64,000 bases of DNA from Pseudomonadales bacterium. Lineage in GTDB: Bacteria > Pseudomonadota > Gammaproteobacteria > Pseudomonadales > UBA5518. Made by a program: the position numbers and the translations under genes. Each line of letters opens with the position of its first letter. Within the stretch, counting starts at the first letter, position 1. The stretch is from contig JAJVIG010000004.1 of the NCBI GenBank assembly GCA_022072145.1, positions 3,919 to 67,918 of the forward strand. Reading direction: 5' to 3'. The notes under the pieces are model-generated. The model was given only the letters and a program-made list of their open reading frames with translations. It had not been told where the DNA came from and made no database searches. Below, one piece after another: positions 4,484-62,111 of this stretch.

Positions 4484-4687
4484 GCCGCCCGCTCCGTACC
4501 GGACCCGATCCGTGGCGGAGCGGGGTGCCGCCGCGGCGGGCCCGGCCACCCGGCCGGGCGCCGGACGAGCGGGCCCGAACGACACACACGCACCGGCACA
4601 TGGTCCGGGGTGCCCGGGGCGGCAGTTGCCGAACGGGTCGGACCATGGGGTGCGTGGAGGCTCAACCCTGACAACGAAGGTACCGTC

Positions 4688-26007: not shown

Positions 26008-26121
26008 GGCAGTCCCGGTCGGTGCCCTCGCAACGCTGGATGAGGAACCCCGCCAGGCCCGGAAGGGAGCAACGGTACTCGTCGACGCGTGTGCCGGGGT
26101 GTCGCTGGCCGGGGCTGCCAC
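26008..26121 (+). ncRNA. ffs: Signal recognition particle RNA (4.5S RNA)
   Basis: Colinear with E. coli 4.5S. The terminal helix GGCAGUCCCGG/CCGGGGCUGCC closes the molecule. CUCGCAACGCU is present, as is domain IV CCAGGCCCGGAAGGGAGCAAC with the GGAA tetraloop and AGCA loop, and GACGCGUGUGCCGGGGUGUCGCUGGCC. Lies directly upstream of dnaX, as is typical. Confidence 0.9.
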
Positions 26122-53418: not shown

Positions 53419-54724
53419 TCGGGGGCGGGCGCCGCGCGGCCGGCGTCACCAGGACTTGCGCGATCCGGTTGCCCTCCATCGCGGCGACCTCGAAGCGCAG
53501 CCCGTCCCAGTCGACGTGATCGCCCGCGACCGGTATGCGCTCCAGGCTGTGCATCACGAATCCCGCGATGGTGTTGAAGCCGTAGACGTCCCGGCCCGGC
53601 GGGTCCTCCTCGCGTTCCAGCACCTGTTTCACGCGGTCCATCGATGCCGTGCCCTCGATCAGCAGCGCGCCGTCCTCGCGGCGCGTGAACTCGGCGTCTT
53701 CCGGTTCCTCCGGCAGCAGTCGCTCGCCGACGATGGCGCGCAGCATGTCGCCCAGCGTCACCAGTCCCTGCAGTGCACCGTACTCGTCGACGACCAGCGC
53801 GATGTGCGTCCGCGCGCGACGGAAATTGTCGAGCAACTGGAACAGGGTCAGGCTCTCGGTGACGTAGAGCGGCGTGTGCAACCGGGACGTCAGGTCGAGC
53901 GGGAGTCCCTGCAGTGCGGGAACCAGCAGATCGGCCCGGCGCAGGATGCCGGCGACCTGCTCGGCGCTGCCGCGACAGACGACGATGTGTTCGTGTGGAC
54001 ATTCGAGCAATCGTTGCCGGACGACTGCCTCGGCCGCGTTCAGATCGACGCGGTACACCTCGAGCCGCGGCGTCATGATCGAACCGACGCGCTGTTCGTC
54101 GAGCCGCAGCACATTGGCGACGATCTCGCGTTCGCTCTCGTGGAAGACGCCGGACTCCGCGCCGTGCAGCATCAGGACCTTGATCTCCTCGTCGGTGACC
54201 GGGTGTTCCTCGCGGCGCCTCGCTCCGGTGATCCGCAGGATCAGGTCCGAGGAGGCCGACAGCAGCCACACCAGCGGCCGTGCAACGCAGGACAACGCGT
54301 TCATGGGGCGTGCCACCAGCGAGGCGATCGCCTCCGGGGCGAGCAGGCCCAGACGCTTGGGCACCAGTTCGCCTACCACGACCGAAACGTAGGTCAGGGC
54401 GACCACCACCACGGTCAGCGCGACGCTGCTCGCCCACGGTTCGATGGCCGGCACGGTGCGCAACCAGTCGCGCAGCGGGTCCGCCAGCGCGGCTTCGCCG
54501 ACCGCACCGCTGAGGATGCCGATCGAGGTGATCCCCACCTGGATCGTGGACAGGAAACGCGACGGCTCCTCGTGGAGCGCGAGTGCGGCCGGCGCGCCAG
54601 GGCGTCCCGAATCCGCCAGGCGCTGCAGCCGCGCCTTGCGCGAGGACACGACCGCGATCTCGCACATCGCGAATACCGCGTTCAGCAGGATCAGGAATGC
54701 CAGCAGTGCAATATCGATCGCCAT
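53393..54724 (-). CDS. CNNM/TlyC-family protein (DUF21-CBS pair-CorC_HlyC)
   Basis: 443 codons from ATG 54722-54724. DUF21 membrane region (AFLILLNAVFAMCEIAVVSS), CBS pair, and a C-terminal transporter-associated domain. Confidence 0.9.
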   Translation of the reverse strand: MAIDIALLAFLILLNAVFAMCEIAVVSSRKARLQRLADSGRPGAPAALALHEEPSRFLSTIQVGITSIGILSGAVGEAALADPLRDWLRTVPAIEPWASSVALTVVVVALTYVSVVVGELVPKRLGLLAPEAIASLVARPMNALSCVARPLVWLLSASSDLILRITGARRREEHPVTDEEIKVLMLHGAESGVFHESEREIVANVLRLDEQRVGSIMTPRLEVYRVDLNAAEAVVRQRLLECPHEHIVVCRGSAEQVAGILRRADLLVPALQGLPLDLTSRLHTPLYVTESLTLFQLLDNFRRARTHIALVVDEYGALQGLVTLGDMLRAIVGERLLPEEPEDAEFTRREDGALLIEGTASMDRVKQVLEREEDPPGRDVYGFNTIAGFVMHSLERIPVAGDHVDWDGLRFEVAAMEGNRIAQVLVTPAARRPPPISDRSRPQ

Positions 54725-54879
54725 TGTCTTTTCGGCACGGGTTGCGCAGCGCCGCGCGCCGGTCTCGCTGCCGCGCTTCCGGAACGGTGCGGCCGATACC
54801 ATCGGGGCACGCGGATCGTTGCACGGCGGATCGCCAGCCTGCAAGCTGTGGCCGGTGGCCAGCGAGCAGGAGTGAGGTG

Positions 54880-56127
54880 ATGTCCAGAGCAGGGTATGCA
54901 TGCGCTGTCGCGGTGCTGCTGGGCGTATCGTCGATGACGGCGTTCGGCGAGCAGCGAGGCGATGATGGGCCGGGCGCCGACATCCGCGCCTGGGAGGCGT
55001 TCATGAACGCCGCGCGCGACGCCGGCAGCGAGTTCCTGCGCCGGTATCCGCAGGGCGAGCAGTCCGACCGCGCCGAGGCGCTGCTGTACCTGAGCCAGCA
55101 ATTGGCCGGCAGCGTCCAGCTGACGCTCGCCGACCAGGACCGTGACCTGCCGCTGCTGCGCCTCGGCGCGACCAATATCGGCAAGTGGGGGCTCGACGGC
55201 GCCGATGCGCGCTACCTCGGCGCCGCGCTCGATCCGGCGGGACGCTACCGTTTGTCCGGGCAACTGGGAACGGCCCGGCTCACTGCAGTGCAGGTCGTCA
55301 CCGACCATCCGGTCTACGCGGCACACGGCTCGCTGTCGGATGCGGCGCTCGGGACGCCGGGTAGCGAGGTGTCGGTACTGCTCGCCCCCGAGCGGCCGGC
55401 CGACTGGCAAGGGGCGTGGTTGCCGCTACCCGCGCAGGCCAACCGGCTGGTGATCCGGGAGTACTTCGGTGACTGGGCATCGGAGTCCCCGGCGCACTGG
55501 CGGCTGGAGCGGCTCGACACCGCGGCGACGCCGGCGCCGCTGCCGGATCTGGCGGGCGCAGCCGCATCGCTCGCGAACGTCCAGGCGCGCTTCGAGCACC
55601 GGCTGCACATCTGGATGCCGTGGCTCGAGCGCACGCGCGAGCGCTCCACGAACACGTTGGTGCCGCTGGGTCCGGGCGGGCAGGGACTCGCGAACAACGT
55701 CTACGGCGAAGGCTGGTTCAGGCTCGCCGACGACGAGGTGCTGCTGATCGAATTCGATTCGCCGCAGGCCGCGCTGTGGAGCCTGCAGCTCGGCAACAGG
55801 TGGTGGGAATCGCTCGATTACATCCACCGCACCGGCAGCGTCAACGGGGATCAGGCGATCGCCGACGGCGACGGCCGCTACCGGATCGTGGTCGCGGACC
55901 GGGACCCCGGTTACGCGAACTGGCTGGATACCGGCGGGCACCGCGAAGGGGCGATGATGTACCGCTTCCAGAACAGCCGCAACGCACCGTTGCCGGCCGT
56001 GCGACTGCTGAAACGCGGCGCGCTGGACGCCGCGATGCCGCGGGATGCGGCCAGGATCGACGCGGCGCAGCGTGCGCAGCAGATCGCGCTGCGACGCGCG
56101 CACGCACACCGGCGGTGGTCGCCGTGA
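54880..56127 (+). CDS. Secreted DUF1214-like family protein, paralog 1
   Basis: 415 codons from ATG 54880 (SD GAGGTG) with a signal peptide MSRAGYACAVAVLLGVSSMTAFG. Shares DPGYANWLDTGG and the basic C-terminal tail ...RRAHAHRRW with the two paralogs below. Confidence 0.7.
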   Translation: MSRAGYACAVAVLLGVSSMTAFGEQRGDDGPGADIRAWEAFMNAARDAGSEFLRRYPQGEQSDRAEALLYLSQQLAGSVQLTLADQDRDLPLLRLGATNIGKWGLDGADARYLGAALDPAGRYRLSGQLGTARLTAVQVVTDHPVYAAHGSLSDAALGTPGSEVSVLLAPERPADWQGAWLPLPAQANRLVIREYFGDWASESPAHWRLERLDTAATPAPLPDLAGAAASLANVQARFEHRLHIWMPWLERTRERSTNTLVPLGPGGQGLANNVYGEGWFRLADDEVLLIEFDSPQAALWSLQLGNRWWESLDYIHRTGSVNGDQAIADGDGRYRIVVADRDPGYANWLDTGGHREGAMMYRFQNSRNAPLPAVRLLKRGALDAAMPRDAARIDAAQRAQQIALRRAHAHRRWSP

Positions 56128-56141
56128 GCGCCGGGTTCGCG

Positions 56142-57794
56142 ATGGCCCTGCGCTGCCTGCTCGCGTTGCCATTGCTTGCCTCGGCCCAGCTGGCGCTGGC
56201 GAGCGCGACGACAGCGGACTGCGCACTGCTCGCACGCGCGCAACGCTTCGACCCGGCGCTCGACGACTGTTTCGCGCTGGCGATCCGCGCGGGTGGCGAA
56301 GGCATGGAGCGGCTGCTGGCGCGGGATTTCTCCTACAACACCTCGCGTGGCACCCGGCTCGACGGCGAGCAGCTGCGTGCCTGGCTGGCCGGGGACGCCA
56401 ACCGGCTCGCGGACGTGCGCGTGGAGGATCTGCGCGAGCGCGCCACGGGCACCGCGGTGCTCACCGACGGGGTGATGGTGGCCACGCCGGTCGGCGAACC
56501 GCCGCTGCGTTCGCGTTATCTGCATGTCTGGGTGTACGAGGAGCCGGCCGGCTGGCGACTGCTGGCGCGCCAGGTCACGGAGCTGCCGGTAGATGCACCA
56601 TCCGCGGATCCGGATGATCCAGTGCACGGTGCGTTCGGCGAACTGCTGCGCAGCCTGGTCGACGCGGAGCGAAGCGTGCGCGGCAGTCCGGCCTACGGCA
56701 GCGACACCGAGCGCGCGGCGGGCTATCTGCACCTGTCGCGGATGGTGCTGAAGTCCGTCGAACAGGAAATGCTGCAGGACGCGGATTTCCCGTTCTTCCG
56801 CGTCATGGACCTGCACATCCGCGAGGGCGGCGACAACCCGGACCAGCGCTACCTGTTCGCGCCGGTTCGCGGCGGCCAGGCGTACCGCATCCACGGACAG
56901 CTCGGCAGCGCGGACCGACTGGAAGTGCAGCTCTATGCCGGTGAGCCGTGGGCCGGCAGCGGCCGCTCGGCGGGCTATCTGGGCTTCGAACAGATCGATA
57001 TCGGCGCCGACGGCAATTTCAGCATCGAGCTGGTCGCTCCGGATGCGTCGCTTGGCCGCAACCGGCTTGGCAATCCCGGCGACAGCACGACGGTGGTCGT
57101 GCGCCAGATCTACAGCCGCTGGCAGGTGGCCGATCCCGGGCACGTGCACATCGACCGCGTCGGCTTCGAGGGCGTGCCGCGTGCGCCGGCATCGAGCGAG
57201 GAGGTGGGGCGGCGACTGCGCGAGACCGCACGCATCCTTGCGCAGTCGGTGCGGGTGTGGCCCGATTTCGTGCAGCAGCGCTATGTGCGTGCACTGCCGG
57301 CCAACACGCTGACGGCGCCGGCCGATACCGCGCGCCTCGGCGGGGTGCACGGGCGCTGGATGGCGAGCGGGCATTTCGAGATCCCCGCGGGGCAGGCGCT
57401 GGTGGTGCGCACCGTGCCGACCTCGGCGCACTACCAGGCGTTGCAGATCGCCGATCTCTGGTTCGCCTCGCTGGAATACGCCAACGGAAGCGCGAGTTTC
57501 ACGGCGGCCCAGTCGCGCCTGGCGGCCGATGGTGCGTACTACCATGTGATCAGCGCCGAGGATCCGGGCTACCACAACTGGCTGGGCACCGGTGGACTGC
57601 AGCGCGGTGTGCTGTTGCTGCGCTATGACGGCGTGCGCGGTGAACTGCCCGCGAACCAGTGGCCTTCGGCGCAACTGCTGCCGCTCGCCGAGCTCGAGCG
57701 TCACATCCCGGGCTTCACGATGGTGACGCCCGAGGAGCGCGCCGGGCAGTTGCGCGCGCGGCGCGCACACGTGCAGCGACGGTTCAGCCGGTAG
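56142..57794 (+). CDS. Secreted DUF1214-like family protein, paralog 2, with an extra N-terminal ~130-aa domain
   Basis: Signal peptide MALRCLLALPLLASAQLALA; GTG 56124, overlapping the upstream TGA, is an alternative start. The N-terminal region looks like a SnoaL/NTF2-type fold. The C-terminal part is colinear with paralogs 1 and 3 (GGDNPDQRY, DPGYHNWLGTGG, RRAHVQRRF). Confidence 0.7.
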   Translation: MALRCLLALPLLASAQLALASATTADCALLARAQRFDPALDDCFALAIRAGGEGMERLLARDFSYNTSRGTRLDGEQLRAWLAGDANRLADVRVEDLRERATGTAVLTDGVMVATPVGEPPLRSRYLHVWVYEEPAGWRLLARQVTELPVDAPSADPDDPVHGAFGELLRSLVDAERSVRGSPAYGSDTERAAGYLHLSRMVLKSVEQEMLQDADFPFFRVMDLHIREGGDNPDQRYLFAPVRGGQAYRIHGQLGSADRLEVQLYAGEPWAGSGRSAGYLGFEQIDIGADGNFSIELVAPDASLGRNRLGNPGDSTTVVVRQIYSRWQVADPGHVHIDRVGFEGVPRAPASSEEVGRRLRETARILAQSVRVWPDFVQQRYVRALPANTLTAPADTARLGGVHGRWMASGHFEIPAGQALVVRTVPTSAHYQALQIADLWFASLEYANGSASFTAAQSRLAADGAYYHVISAEDPGYHNWLGTGGLQRGVLLLRYDGVRGELPANQWPSAQLLPLAELERHIPGFTMVTPEERAGQLRARRAHVQRRFSR

Positions 57795-57980
57795 CGGCCT
57801 GGGGGCCCGTTCATCCGCCATGCAACGCGAGCGCCTGCGTGCCGGCGCGCGTGCTCGCGGTACGGCAGGTCGAGCATCGCGCCGGGTGCGTGCAGCCGCA
57901 CGACACCGGAGGCGAGGGCGGAGTGCGTGCGGTGCGGGATCACCTGGACGCGTTTACCGGACCGGTACCGGTCAGCACGT

Positions 57981-58295
57981 TCATGCGCAGTCCTCCGCGT
58001 GGTTGCCTGAACCCGGTGTGTGCGCGCGCGATGGTGTGGCGTCGTCGCCGAGGCGCCGATCGGCAGCCAGGCGGATTTCCTCGTCGCGCAGCGCCATCAG
58101 CACGGCCTCGAGTTCGGCGAACCCGAGCTCGATCGCATGCAACTGGACGATGAGCTGGCCGCTGCCGGGCGGGTGTTCGTGGAACGGCACGTCGTGGCCG
58201 AAGCCGTCGACGAATACCCGCAGCACGCCGCTGCAGTGCGGTGTTGCGGTGCGGTGGTGGAATACGTCCACGAGGGACGGGGTGATGATCGACAT
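57981..58295 (-). CDS. Small His-rich hypothetical protein (104 aa)
   Basis: ATG 58293-58295 is preceded by a consensus AGGAGG 5 nt upstream. 10 His in 104 aa (FHHRTATPH, GHDVPFHEH, AHTPGSGNH). No family recognised. Confidence 0.5.
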   Translation of the reverse strand: MSIITPSLVDVFHHRTATPHCSGVLRVFVDGFGHDVPFHEHPPGSGQLIVQLHAIELGFAELEAVLMALRDEEIRLAADRRLGDDATPSRAHTPGSGNHAEDCA

Positions 58296-58349
58296 GAGTC
58301 CTCCTGTTTGCCCTTGAAGGGCATCCGGGAGACGTGACGCGATGGGTGC

Positions 58350-58445
58350 CTGCTTGGTTGCCGGCCGGCCGCATCCCTCTTGCGAGGACACCACCTTGCC
58401 CAGGCGGGCAGGTTGGCGGGGCGTCAAGCCCTCTCGTGATGCCAG
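58350..58445 (-). promoter_or_regulatory. Candidate structured cis-regulatory RNA, unit A (riboswitch-like four-way junction)
   Basis: P1 GCAUC/GAUGC (58438-58442 with 58371-58375). P2 GGGC-UUGAC-GCCC. P3 CCA(A)CCUGCCC-GCCU-GGGCA(A)GGUGG. P4 CCUC-GCAA-GAGG. 3' tail GGCAACCAAGC. Lies in the 5' leader of the His-rich ORF. Confidence 0.5.
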
Positions 58446-58451
58446 ATACAT

Positions 58452-58480
58452 AAACGAAAAACCCCGCAGCAAGGCGGGGT
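58452..58480 (-). terminator. Intrinsic terminator between RNA units B and A
   Basis: On the minus strand: ACCCCGC-CUUGCU-GCGGGGU followed by UUUUCGUUUA. This is a 7-bp GC-rich stem plus a U tract. Confidence 0.65.
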
Positions 58481-58488
58481 CAGCGTCC

Positions 58489-58578
58489 GCTTGGTTGCCC
58501 GCAGGCCGCATCTGCTCTTGCGAGCACACCACCTTGCAGGGACGCTGCAGGTTGGTGGGGCTGACCCCGTCTTGATGC
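58489..58578 (-). promoter_or_regulatory. Candidate structured RNA, unit B (same fold as unit A)
   Basis: P1 GCAUC/GAUGC (58574-58578 with 58508-58512). P2 GGGG-UCAG-CCCC. P3 CCA(A)CCUGCAG-CGUCC-CUGCA(A)GGUGG. P4 UGCUC-GCAA-GAGCA. Tail GGCAACCAAGC. There are compensatory changes relative to unit A in P2, P3 and P4. Confidence 0.5.
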
Positions 58579-58585
58579 AGGAGGG

Positions 58586-58614
58586 ATCGTAGCGAGGACA
58601 GGGGTGTGCGTCAA
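58586..58614 (-). promoter_or_regulatory. Putative sigma70 promoter (TTGACG-17 nt-TACGAT) driving unit B
   Basis: The hexamers read on the minus strand with a 17-nt spacer. The predicted start falls within a few nt of the first P1 nucleotide of unit B. Confidence 0.4.
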
Positions 58615-58641
58615 TGCGGCCGCGCTCATTCACGTGCAATC

Positions 58642-58682
58642 CCGGTGTTGCAGGCCGGTTTCACCGTGACCTGCAACACCGG
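58642..58682. repeat. Perfect 13-bp inverted repeat (CCGGTGTTGCAGG - 15 nt - CCTGCAACACCGG)
   Basis: Read directly. It lies 15 nt downstream of the sulfotransferase stop. No U tract follows on either strand. Confidence 0.9.
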
Positions 58683-58696
58683 CCAGAGCTTGCGGG

Positions 58697-59956
58697 TCAG
58701 AGTTCGTCCGGTACGTCGAAATAGCGTTGATACCGGCGGAAGCACTGGCGTTTCTGGTGCGCCGCGTCGTCCTCGCCCACATCGTACTGGTGCGCGCCGA
58801 ACTTGCCCTGGGGCTTGCCTTCCAGATACCGGGCCATATGCGCCTCCACCTCGACGTCGAGGGGCAGGTCGATCTGCCGGTAGACCTTGCGCAAGGCCGC
58901 CAGGGGGGCGTCGATCAGATCGGCATAACGGGAATTGGCGCACTGCGCGCGGGGAATGGTGCCGTCTTCGAGCCAGTCGATGACCCGTTCCAGCCGCGCC
59001 GCCATGTGCTCCGCAGAGAGCAGGCTCTCGAAGGAAGTGACATCGAGAGGCTTGTCGCTGCGCATCCAGTAGAAGGTGCCGGCCAGATTGGTCACCGACG
59101 CCTGGGCCTTGAGCGGGTCGCGGTGGGTGAGCAGCACGCGGGCGTCGGGAAAGACCTTGAACAGGGTGGGCAGGTAGTTGAGGTGCGACGGTGCCTTCAG
59201 CAGCCAGTGCCGGCGCGGATTGCGCCATTGCCACAGCTGCAGCATCTTCCGGTAGAAGAGATAGGGATATTCCCAGTCGGTACGGGTGCCGAGCCATTCC
59301 ATGTAGCTGGGTACCTGGAACAGGAAGGGAATGTATTCGCTGACGAAGGTGCAGGCCTGGGCAATGATGCATTCGTTAGGCAGGCGTGCGTCCATCTCGT
59401 GCATGGTGGCATAGGTGGGCGTGACGCGGTTCCATTGGGTGATCAGGTGCTGGCAGCGCTCGATGCGCGGGTCGCTGTCGTAGGTGGCGCGCTCGGGCGG
59501 GGGGTAGGGGAACATCATTTCCCAGTGGCGCGGCGAACCGAAGCGCGGATCCTGGGAGAGCAGTTCGAAAAGTATGGAGGTGCCGGAACGGGACAGTCCG
59601 GCAATGATTACCGGGCGATCGATCTGTTCCCCGGCGATCTCGGGATGCGCCGTGAAGGCCGCCTGGACGCCGAGCAGCGCCTGCAGCCAGATCAGGATCT
59701 CGTTGCGGGTCATCAGGCGGCCGAAATAATGCAGTTCGGCCTCTTCGTCCAGCGACTTCAAAAGAACCTCGAAAGGTTCCCGCCAGCGGTCGTCGCCGAA
59801 GTCGGACAGACCCGTCGCGCGGCAGGCCGTGGCGATCAGTTCGTCCGCTTGCAATGGCACCAGGCTGCGCAGGTCCGTATATCGGCCTTCGGCGTTGAAC
59901 CGGGCCAGCCACTCGGGCCGTGGCGGGGGCTGCCAGCTCAGGGTGCCGTCGCTCAT
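58697..59956 (-). CDS. Sulfotransferase family protein (PAPS-dependent type)
   Basis: 419-aa ORF with 5'-PSB-like IIAGLSRSGTS and 3'-PB-like VLLTHRDPLKAQAS motifs. Confidence 0.88.
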   Translation of the reverse strand: MSDGTLSWQPPPRPEWLARFNAEGRYTDLRSLVPLQADELIATACRATGLSDFGDDRWREPFEVLLKSLDEEAELHYFGRLMTRNEILIWLQALLGVQAAFTAHPEIAGEQIDRPVIIAGLSRSGTSILFELLSQDPRFGSPRHWEMMFPYPPPERATYDSDPRIERCQHLITQWNRVTPTYATMHEMDARLPNECIIAQACTFVSEYIPFLFQVPSYMEWLGTRTDWEYPYLFYRKMLQLWQWRNPRRHWLLKAPSHLNYLPTLFKVFPDARVLLTHRDPLKAQASVTNLAGTFYWMRSDKPLDVTSFESLLSAEHMAARLERVIDWLEDGTIPRAQCANSRYADLIDAPLAALRKVYRQIDLPLDVEVEAHMARYLEGKPQGKFGAHQYDVGEDDAAHQKRQCFRRYQRYFDVPDEL

Positions 59957-59986: not shown

Positions 59987-61195
59987 TCAATAACCGAAGC
60001 GCCGGGTCACGCCCCGGCGTCGGGCAGCCAGCTGCTCGCGGCGTTCGTCGTGGCCGATGCGCTTGACGTTGCCGGGGAGCTGCGCAAAAAGTTCGGCCAG
60101 GGCCACCTGGGTTGCCTGGGGTACCGGCTGCTCATCCGAGAGCATCCAGCGGAAGGTGACGTAGCCGGCCGAAAATCCGGAACAATCGAGCCAGTTGGGT
60201 ACGCCGGGATCTTCGTGGGCCACCACCACGACAAGTTCGCCATCGTCCTCGCGCACCGCGTAGTGCATGTTGGTATTCGATAGCCGGTAGCGGTAGTCGA
60301 CCGTCTCCCACCACGAATTGCCGAATTCCACGCCCCAATACACGCACTTCTCCGGCGGTCTGACACGGATGACCAGGGCCTGGTCCGGCGGCAGTTCCCA
60401 ATAGCAGACCATGGGGTCGCCGCCCGGCGTGGCGTCGATGCGGTTCTTCTCCAGTTGCCAGTAGGACAGGAACTGGTTGCGGTAGGGTTTCCAGCGGGCC
60501 AGCATTTCCGGCCAGTACTCGACGGATTCCTTGAGCCAGCGCACGGAGTCGGTGAGGCCCTGCGCGAGGGCGGCCGGGGACGGGCAGGGGGGAGGGGTGT
60601 GCGGCCCCGAGACGCGGTCGATCTGCGCCCGCATCGGCCGCTCTGCCTCCCAATCGGCGAAATACTGACGGAAGGTGATACGGAAGGTGTCGGGCGTGGT
60701 TTTCAGCCAGTTGCCCGCGCCGCATCCGGGCGGACGCTCGGGGCCGATCCAGAGCTCGAAGCTGCCGTCTGCTGCGGTCTCGATCTGGTGCCCGAAGAGA
60801 ACGTCGGCGACACGGCCACCCCAGGGGGTCAGGCCGGTTTCCACTGCCACCACGGAGAAGTACCGGGAACTGCCGCGGTCACCGCAGATGCGGTAGGTGT
60901 CGGTGCCGTTGACCTGGGCGCCGACGTAGACGCAGTCGGAATTGTCCCCGCCCTGCTTGCGGGTCGGATCGAAATAGCGGGCCAGTTCCGGGAAGAGCGG
61001 GTCGCGATACTCGTAATGGAACTGCCAGGCGAGGGAAAGGTTGCGCATCAGCTGCAGGAAGCCTGCCGCCCGATCCAGGGGGCGATCCGGGACGTCGGGG
61101 CGCAGAGGAATGCGCCCGGCCTCCTTCAGGCGATCACAGAACTCGTCCCAGGCTTTGCCCAGCTCCCCGATTCCGTCTTCCCGGCCTTCGTTCAT
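59987..61195 (-). CDS. DUF1214-like family protein, paralog 3 (no signal peptide)
   Basis: 402-aa ORF colinear with paralogs 1 and 2 (GGDNSDCVY, WWETVDYRYR, EDPGVPNWLDCSG, RRGVTRRFGY). Lies 30 nt upstream of the sulfotransferase gene on the same strand. Confidence 0.75.
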   Translation of the reverse strand: MNEGREDGIGELGKAWDEFCDRLKEAGRIPLRPDVPDRPLDRAAGFLQLMRNLSLAWQFHYEYRDPLFPELARYFDPTRKQGGDNSDCVYVGAQVNGTDTYRICGDRGSSRYFSVVAVETGLTPWGGRVADVLFGHQIETAADGSFELWIGPERPPGCGAGNWLKTTPDTFRITFRQYFADWEAERPMRAQIDRVSGPHTPPPCPSPAALAQGLTDSVRWLKESVEYWPEMLARWKPYRNQFLSYWQLEKNRIDATPGGDPMVCYWELPPDQALVIRVRPPEKCVYWGVEFGNSWWETVDYRYRLSNTNMHYAVREDDGELVVVVAHEDPGVPNWLDCSGFSAGYVTFRWMLSDEQPVPQATQVALAELFAQLPGNVKRIGHDERREQLAARRRGVTRRFGY

Positions 61196-61303: not shown

Positions 61304-61897
61304 ATGCCGAAAATCGTCGATAGCGACGAGCGTCGCGAGTTCATCGCCCGGATCGCTGCGGAAGTGATTGCCAGCGACGGCATCGAGCGCGCCACCATTC
61401 GCGAGATCGCCCGCCGGGCCGGGGCCACGCGGGGACTGGTGGAGCACCACTTCCGCAACAAGGCCGAAGTCATCGAGAGCGCGCTGGACTGGCTCAATCG
61501 ACGCTATCTCCGCCGGGAACGGAAGGTTCGCCAGGGCAAGGAAGGGCTGGACGCGCTGGAGGCGAGGATCCGCTGCTTCCTTCCGGTCAGCGCGGTCGCA
61601 CGGCGGGAGTGGCGTTTGCGCCTTCGCTTCTGGAGTTCCAACGATCCTTTGGTCCAGGCGGTGCAGCGGGCACGGCTCGGCGAAACACGACGTCTTTTTC
61701 GCGATGACATCGCCAGGGCCGTTGCGCTGGGACAGATGCCGGAGCCGCCCGACCTGTCCATCGTCGCCGAGCGGCTGCTCGCGCGCGTCGCCGGCCTCAG
61801 TGCGCAGGCGGTGGTCGATCACCAGCACTACAGCAGCGGCCGCTTGATGGCGGAACTCTCCGCGATGCTGGAGGAACTCCGGCAGGGGCGGTTCTAG
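61304..61897 (+). CDS. TetR/AcrR-family transcriptional regulator
   Basis: 197-aa ORF with the N-terminal HTH ATIREIARRAGATRGLVEHHFRNKAEV. Confidence 0.9.
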   Translation: MPKIVDSDERREFIARIAAEVIASDGIERATIREIARRAGATRGLVEHHFRNKAEVIESALDWLNRRYLRRERKVRQGKEGLDALEARIRCFLPVSAVARREWRLRLRFWSSNDPLVQAVQRARLGETRRLFRDDIARAVALGQMPEPPDLSIVAERLLARVAGLSAQAVVDHQHYSSGRLMAELSAMLEELRQGRF

Positions 61898-62035: not shown

Positions 62036-62111
62036 TGGCTCCGCCTGTTGGGCTCGAACCAACGACCCGCTGATTAACAGTCAGCTGCTCTACCTGCTGA
62101 GCTAAGGCGGA
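62036..62111 (-). tRNA. tRNA-Asn (anticodon GUU), CCA encoded
   Basis: Cloverleaf folded by hand. Acceptor TCCGCCT/AGGCGGA, D arm GCTC/GAGC, anticodon arm GCTGA-CTGTTAA-TCAGC, T arm GTTGG-TTCGAGC-CCAAC, discriminator G plus CCA. Close to E. coli tRNA-Asn around GACUGUUAAUC. Confidence 0.97.

Follow-up and report, generated by a model that had tools for sequence, protein, structure and literature searches.

We analysed a 64,000-nucleotide (nt) stretch of a Pseudomonadales genome assembly (contig JAJVIG010000004.1), hereafter the window, and focused on its minus strand, in the interval that separates a small open reading frame, ORF1, from a sulfotransferase-family gene (58697-59956, Pfam Sulfotransfer_3). 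In this intergenic region, with the sulfotransferase gene directly upstream, lie two RNA units of about 100 nt each, unit B and then unit A in the direction of transcription, together with a promoter, an intrinsic terminator and ORF1's ribosome-binding site (RBS). A first-pass annotation, made from the letters alone, had described the pair as a riboswitch-like element that could be assigned to no known class.

Identity and fold of the two RNA units

We scanned the whole window against Rfam and found that each unit matches the same known family, RF01725, the SAM-I/IV riboswitch (SAM, S-adenosylmethionine), which belongs to the SAM clan CL00012. Unit A scored 60.9 bits (E = 1.4e-7) and unit B 48.4 bits (E = 7.7e-5), with E-values that refer to the entire 64-kb window, and the curated gathering threshold of the family is 41.1 bits. 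Both matches span the full model (positions 1-99). Moreover, both units aligned collinearly, helix for helix, with 4L81, the crystallised SAM-I/IV aptamer (env87; sequence taken from PMC5393176), so the description of the units as unassigned does not stand. Common to 4L81 and the units are P1 with its 3' strand, the J1/2 junction segment ACGAG, written (A)CGAG for the class, a short-hairpin P2 without a kink-turn (K-turn), a P3 with CAACCUG...CAAGGUG, a GNRA-capped P4 within the junction, the P5 hairpin, and the tail AAC(C/G)AAG followed by the strand of the pseudoknot PK-2. The binding core of the SAM clan (A-U/U-A in P1, G-A in J1/2, and CAACC/AAGGUG in the P3 internal loop) was invariant in 10 of 10 aligned units and identical in 4L81, and the upper-case core positions of the Rfam consensus, including GAUGCGGC, were likewise kept in all ten. 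The P3 core pattern occurs twice within the 64-kb window, compared with 0.00 occurrences expected.

The traits given for the SAM-I/IV class are an unsplit P2, the absence of PK-1, a P4 helix, and a PK-2 connected to P5; the P4 helix lies within the junction in the solved SAM-I/IV structure and is missing from SAM-IV (PMC6890682), and the supplement of the original description of the class gives the P2 internal loop as absent (PMC2864571). In the two units P2 is a single uninterrupted helix of 4-5 bp with a loop of 4-5 nt (GGGG-UCAG-CCCC in one, G-GGGC-UUGAC-GCCC-C in the other), and direct reading of the P2 loop (L2) against the 1-3 nt that separate P3 and P4 revealed no complementarity that would form PK-1. 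Judged from these sequence features, both units are SAM-I/IV riboswitch aptamers, a class that senses SAM, rather than members of a new riboswitch class, and SAM would be the ligand of both. A divalent metal, which had been suggested as ligand on account of the His-rich product of ORF1, does not fit the conserved core, which is that of SAM binders.

The units share four direct repeats (D1-D4), whose copies lie 137-139 nt apart and are 92-96% identical. The shared blocks, P1, P2, distal P3 and the GCAA-capped stem of the first-pass annotation were all recovered where it had placed them, and its four-way junction with three hairpins corresponds to the known SAM-I/IV junction; the unconstrained minimum free energy (MFE) structure of unit A gives this junction with P1-P4. 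That fold was correct as far as it went, but the P5 hairpin and the PK-2 pseudoknot had been overlooked. P1 is GCAUC/GAUGC in both units, and the differences between the units preserve base-pairing, as had been claimed: unit A has GGGC/GCCC in P2, UGCCC/GGGCA in distal P3 and CCUC-GCAA-GAGG in P4, where unit B has GGGG/CCCC, UGCAG/CUGCA and GCUC-GCAA-GAGC, respectively. Across all units P4 appears in five Watson-Crick versions (CCUC/GAGG, GCUC/GAGC, CCCC/GGGG, CCGC/GCGG and CCGCC/GGCGG). P5 (GCC/GGC), located 3' of P1, was 100% paired with variable loops, and PK-2, a pseudoknot of the P3 loop (L3) with the 3' tail, was 87.5% paired (GCCUG/CAGGC in A, GCGUCC/GGACGC in B, and ACCCG/CGGGU or GCCCG/CGGGC in the metagenome-assembled genomes (MAGs) described below). 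In the alignment of ten units, which comprises 8 distinct rows and about six independent sequences, the specified structure was paired in 92.8% of the cells, compared with 31-46% when the 3' partners were slid by 1-3 columns. Seven pairs changed on both sides, one in P1, two in P2, one in P4 and three of the five in PK-2. The apparent mispairs of P4 in this alignment reflect a one-column MAFFT register shift, and P4 was read directly instead.

Predicted expression platforms, relatives and downstream genes

The hexamers TTGACG and TACGAT, separated by 17 nt at 58614-58586, form the sole sigma-70-like site in 57700-58900 (1 observed vs 0.2 expected), so the promoter that the first-pass annotation placed before unit B is the only such site within 1.2 kb. 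Spacing alone would place the transcription start at about 58579, so that P1 of unit B would begin 1-3 nt after it. Two complete aptamers of the same class lie in one 5' leader behind this single promoter-like site, with none between them. Unit B is followed by the predicted intrinsic terminator, whose fold has an energy of -14.6 kcal/mol (z = -3.2) and whose 8-bp stem is followed by UUUUUCGUUU.

The antiterminator is the inverted repeat I1, with arms of 22 nt that are 86% Watson-Crick complementary, and its 3' arm shares 2 nt with the PK-2 3' strand of unit B. The 10-nt complementarity reported previously (58560-58569 with 58475-58484) is real, but it is the core of this longer helix and not its full extent. 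The 5' arm covers the 5' strands of P1 and P2, and aptamer and antiterminator are mutually exclusive, as proposed. The MFE structure of the full leader (-63.6 kcal/mol) contains the antiterminator helix, and the combination of aptamer and terminator has -57.4 kcal/mol. For a transcript that ends before the terminator, the MFE structure is the aptamer fold, and once the 3' arm has been made, the long-range helix becomes the MFE structure. In this model the unit B platform follows standard OFF-switch logic, in which the terminator can form only if the ligand keeps strand invasion from opening P1, P2 and PK-2, and in silico the first aptamer is predicted to control the intrinsic terminator.

Around the predicted start site we also considered CCCUCCUG at 58578-58585 as a candidate anti-Shine-Dalgarno (anti-SD) sequence and rejected it, since transcription probably starts downstream of it and since two disrupting substitutions are present there in L004, a relative that is 96% identical to the window and has the same leader. 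The segment directly 5' of P1 of unit B (58578-58595, AUCCCUCCUG) is complementary to the SD and start region of ORF1 at 58289-58306 (I2, 18 nt, 72%); it is probably at or before the transcription start, with two substitutions in L004, and we took this complementarity as chance. A perfect 13-bp inverted repeat, CCGGUGUUGCAGG ... CCUGCAACACCGG, with a 15-nt loop and without a U-tract on direct reading, lies at 58642-58682 on the minus strand, in the gap that separates the riboswitch promoter from the stop codon of the sulfotransferase gene (58697), and may be a terminator or insulator of the upstream gene.

Unit A had been thought to run straight into the RBS. We found instead that about 43 nt, including a separate hairpin, intervene between the aptamer and the GGAGG SD sequence (58300-58304). 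This SD hairpin has a fold energy of -17.7 kcal/mol (z = -2.6), and inside it the sequence GAUGCC (58320-58325) copies the P1 3' strand of unit A and can pair with GGCAUC, the P1 5' strand plus one G. When forced, the two pairings of unit A P1 were isoenergetic (-67.9 and -67.8 kcal/mol). An anti-aptamer/anti-SD helix of the type seen in L028, one of the MAG loci below, was sought for unit A and not found; P1 partner exchange is the sole candidate, and a translational switch by such an exchange is put forward tentatively, as a hypothesis.

Besides L004, three metagenome contigs (L001-L003) are 99.9-100% identical to the window. The window and L004 differ by 2 substitutions, both in loops (unit B L3 and the SD-hairpin loop), in the 286-nt stretch that begins with unit B's P1 and ends at the start codon; the 315 nt of ORF1 differ by 11 substitutions, with 4 synonymous and 6 non-synonymous codon changes, and the 36 nt of the promoter region by 6, located in the spacer and flanks and none in the hexamers. 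The adjacent ORF1 is less conserved than the leader units.

More distant tandems came from a scan of GTDB species genomes with a tandem P3-core pattern. Among the matches listed, 116 of 119 loci were chance and three were real, so that tandems number at least 3: L028 (219-448) from a Steroidobacteraceae MAG, L059 (2376-2605) and L061 (3957-4193), all three from gammaproteobacterial MAGs. A stricter 26-base tandem pattern gave a single match in metagenomes, L125, which lies in a coding region without an Rfam match and was regarded as chance. All units of the three MAG tandems and the counterparts in L004 exceed the RF01725 threshold. In the MAG pairs the spacer between the units is about 20 nt long and contains no terminator, and each unit has P4, P5 and PK-2. 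No expression platform is evident for the first aptamer; the linker 3' of it is C/A-rich and unstructured, possibly a site of Rho entry. For the second unit a clear three-part platform is visible, in which the anti-SD CCUCGCUCCUC has two alternative partners, the complementary aptamer 5' strand GAGGAGCGAGG and the SD. This arrangement supports the view that the second unit ancestrally acted on translation. Downstream of the MAG tandems lie genes for an AAA_5 (MoxR-like) ATPase, a 160-200-residue ORF and a VWA_CoxE/DUF2201-like protein. The first units of the MAGs group together and so do the second units (77-100% identity), whereas in the window units A and B resemble one another most (72%), so that this pair may have arisen by a separate duplication or have been homogenised.

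The directly controlled gene would be ORF1, whose composition appears coding-like. Searches of Pfam, PADLOC and NCBIfam gave no match for its product. A word-indexed search of a 5.8-billion-cluster index returned one near-identical cluster, and HMMER against 1.84 billion representatives returned 6 proteins at E <= 0.001, only three of which (P0001, P0002 and P0006) look like genuine relatives. The single-sequence AlphaFold model has a mean predicted local distance difference test (pLDDT) score of 48.5. Downstream of ORF1, a paralogue, ORF2, is interrupted in the window by a frameshift (MNVLTGTGPVNASR*, after which another frame continues), and L004 carries at 785-1648 an intact ORF2, 45% identical to ORF1 over 66 residues, followed by a 198-residue ORF3. 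Given this frameshift and the end of the similarity to L004 near 57843, the operon 3' of the riboswitches looks decayed or rearranged in the window. The ORF1 family is thus very small. Its member P0002 (190 residues) is a fusion of an ORF1-like and an ORF2-like half, encoded at 3074-3646 of L126 (JGI 3300036770). In L126 it is preceded by BrnT/BrnA and HI1420-type/HTH toxin-antitoxin pairs, and the region upstream of it contains no SAM-I/IV element and instead a long hairpin with a 20-bp stem in the 5' region; the SAM-I/IV riboswitch is therefore not a constant companion of the ORF1 family.

A proposed pair of serial SAM-OFF switches and the alternatives

We propose, with a probability of about 0.88, that a small operon begins here with a 5' leader that contains two complete SAM-I/IV SAM-OFF switches in series. 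Transcription would start at about 58579 from the TTGACG-17-TACGAT promoter. When SAM is absent, the first 22 nt of unit B (P1 5' strand, J1/2 and P2 5' strand) would pair with 58463-58484, and this antiterminator helix would absorb the terminator hairpin and let RNA polymerase read through. When SAM is bound, P1, P2 and PK-2 of unit B would be locked, with the PK-2 3' strand abutting the antiterminator arm; the 5' arm would be sequestered, the terminator (58460-58481 plus the U-tract) would form, and a transcript of about 125 nt would be released. No promoter separates the terminator and unit A, and ORF1 therefore depends on read-through. Unit A would act on the read-through transcripts, most likely at translation: the 5' strand GGCAUC of its P1 would pair either with 58371-58375 or with GAUGCC in the SD hairpin, and SAM would favour the aptamer partner, so that GGAGG stays buried in the hairpin. 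ORF1, and in the relatives also ORF2 and ORF3, would then be expressed only at low SAM, and two checkpoints would sharpen the response, with shut-off at both transcription and translation. The sequences show the family membership, the architecture, the covariation, the promoter, the terminator and the antiterminator complementarity; from these we infer SAM as the ligand, the OFF direction and the whole of the unit A mechanism.

Several observations weigh against this proposal. Unit B lies just 7 bits over the threshold, and its J1/2 is AAGAC, not AAGAG. The MFE z-scores of the whole aptamers (-1.1 and -0.6) are not significant, so that the structure is supported by the covariance model and by covariation, the latter derived from only about 6 distinct sequences. 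The SD hairpin is present in every computed conformer of unit A, and forcing the alternative P1 reduces SD pairing only modestly. ORF1 is an orphan that has no connection with the metabolism of methionine or SAM, an unusual situation for a SAM-I/IV riboswitch; the usual downstream genes, for metabolism or transport of methionine, cysteine or SAM, are found neither here nor in the relatives. Finally, the support for SAM binding and for regulation is computational.

Unit B comes with a promoter of its own and with a strong terminator, and no second promoter was detected before unit A, so its terminated product must accumulate at high SAM. Listeria SreA and SreB are precedents for terminated SAM riboswitch transcripts that base-pair with other mRNAs. 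Unit B could thus be mainly an independent, trans-acting small RNA (sRNA) of about 125 nt, with unit A alone regulating ORF1 in cis, and the first units of the three MAG tandems, which lack a terminator, indicate that what a first unit does can vary from lineage to lineage. We nevertheless consider this unlikely, since the 22-nt antiterminator makes sense only with regulated read-through into unit A and ORF1, on which ORF1 relies, and a trans role, which unit B may have as well, would supplement its cis role, not replace it. The non-SAM-related genes, both here and in the MAGs (AAA_5 ATPase and VWA/DUF2201-like), would also be explained if the SAM-I/IV fold had been kept with a shifted ligand, such as S-adenosylhomocysteine (SAH) or another adenosyl or sulfur metabolite. 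The deviating J1/2 of unit B would suit such a shift, and PMC6847200 describes variant subgroups with altered specificity in other riboswitch classes. Against it stand the consensus core, kept in 10 of 10 units, and the J1/2 of unit A, which is ACGAG as in the SAM-bound crystal construct 4L81, and these make a changed ligand quite improbable.

The first-pass annotation had also named a dispersed repeat of the repetitive extragenic palindromic (REP) type as a possible outcome, and two similar copies of about 100 nt, 137-139 nt apart in an intergenic region, could in principle be such a repeat or a chance duplication without regulatory function. A REP-like repeat is excluded by the mere two copies in 64 kb. 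Both copies match a curated riboswitch model, their differences preserve pairing, they are conserved above the adjacent ORF, and they are framed by promoter, antiterminator, terminator and RBS; the chance that they lack a regulatory function seems vanishingly small to us. A more speculative extension of the two-switch proposal, to which we give little credence, is that a SAM-I/IV tandem cassette was recruited away from methionine metabolism in Steroidobacteraceae-like Gammaproteobacteria as a SAM-depletion alarm for accessory genes. If so, the orphan ORF1/ORF2 pair here, with its fused homologue next to toxin-antitoxin modules in L126, and the MoxR-like AAA+/VWA operon in the three MAGs would be switched on only when SAM collapses, for example through phage SAM-degrading enzymes or severe methyl-donor starvation, and the serial switches would set a sharp threshold.

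The 3' tail of the Rfam SAM-I/IV consensus resembles a SD sequence (aAggag), which suggests that in the consensus PK-2 itself hides the RBS. The PK-2 3' strands of the window (CAGGC and GGACGC) are not RBSs; unlike the consensus, the window has separate platforms, with unit B followed by an antiterminator/terminator and unit A by a SD hairpin at some distance. Tandem SAM riboswitches in which the first element precedes a terminator and the second controls the RBS are an established design, termed bi-mechanism by Sherlock et al. 2022 (PMC9481103). That study gives as examples SAM-II/SAM-V in 'Ca. Pelagibacter ubique', SAM-II doublets, and SAM-II with SAM-I/IV, and it counts 164 SAM-I doublets, 44 SAM-II doublets, 149 SAM-II/SAM-V pairs, 7 arrangements of SAM-II then SAM-I/IV and 2 of SAM-I/IV then SAM-II. 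A doublet of SAM-I/IV with SAM-I/IV is not in its Table 1, and a 2025 survey lumps all SAM classes. The window resembles the bi-mechanism tandems described there in having two predicted SAM sensors per leader, the first before a terminator and the second by the RBS, with a steeper response expected, and differs in that both of its sensors are SAM-I/IV. With the pseudo-cooperative SAM-I tandems, it shares the binding core of the clan and would share the ligand and the two independent OFF switches in series (PMC9481103); SAM-I has a P2 K-turn and PK-1 and is without P5 and PK-2, and the window units are the opposite. The MAG tandems are alike in carrying two serial RF01725 aptamers, and differ in their short terminator-free spacer, the platform of the second unit and their genes.

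Two minor points are new here, the gene context and a same-class SAM-I/IV doublet, whose first switch would be transcriptional with an unusually long antiterminator of 22 nt. The gene context, which is not methionine or SAM metabolism as in typical SAM-I/IV cases, is the one truly atypical aspect of the locus, and it adds to the cases of SAM riboswitches over genes without a known sulfur or methyl tie, namely an orphan small-protein family and an AAA+/VWA operon. If these associations hold, expression when SAM is low would be a regulatory handle for assigning functions to proteins that so far have none. A false lead is also removed, the repeated units being no new riboswitch class.

Feature coordinates and surroundings

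The features of the leader and of the genes it precedes are collected in Table 1.

Table 1. Coordinates of leader and gene features in the window, in the order of transcription.
Feature	Position	Strand	Basis or remark
-35 hexamer TTGACG	58609-58614	-	same in the relative L004
-10 hexamer TACGAT, 17-nt spacer	58586-58591	-	sequence match
Unit B aptamer (first)	58481-58583	-	RF01725, 48.4 bits; alignment with 4L81
Unit B helices	P1 58574-58578/58508-58512; P2 58557-58568; P3 58528-58556, L3 58540-58545	-	
Unit B helices, 3' part	P4 58514-58525; P5 58497-58506; PK-2 3' strand 58483-58488	-	
Antiterminator 5' arm	58560-58581	-	unit B P1 5' strand, J1/2 and P2 5' strand
Antiterminator 3' arm	58463-58484	-	spans terminator 5' arm, loop and most of 3' arm
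Intrinsic terminator	58450-58481	-	stem-loop 58460-58481, 8 pairs, then UUUUUCGUUUAU; identical in L004
Unit A aptamer (second)	58344-58447	-	RF01725, 60.9 bits; MFE gives P1-P4
Unit A helices	P1 58438-58442/58371-58375; P2 58418-58433; P3 58390-58417, L3 58401-58405	-	
Unit A helices, 3' part	P4 58376-58387; P5 58360-58369; PK-2 3' strand 58348-58352	-	
SD hairpin	58298-58333	-	UCUCC (58328-58332) with GGAGG (58300-58304), inner stem UGCCCUU/AAGGGCA; inverted repeat I3
ORF1, 104 residues, directly controlled gene	57981-58295	-	codon-position GC 0.73/0.45/0.84, like neighbouring genes
ORF2 remnant, ORF1 paralogue	57701-57984	-	frameshifted; similarity to the L004 operon stops near 57843

The window has a GC content of 69.6%. 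Three flanking ORFs, at 54583-56127 and 56154-57794 on the plus strand and at 59987-61195 on the minus strand, have common C-terminal motifs, for example ...NWL(D/G)TGG.... The last of them matches DUF1214 (Pfam, E = 2.5e-13), and the ORF at 56154-57794 has a marginal DUF4440 match of 25.0 bits against a cutoff of 25.2. A TetR-family regulator is encoded at 61304-61897. The other Rfam matches in the window are a t44 RNA (4565-4666, plus strand, 75.2 bits), a bacterial small signal recognition particle (SRP) RNA (26017-26113, plus strand, 69.1 bits) and a tRNA (62039-62111, minus strand).

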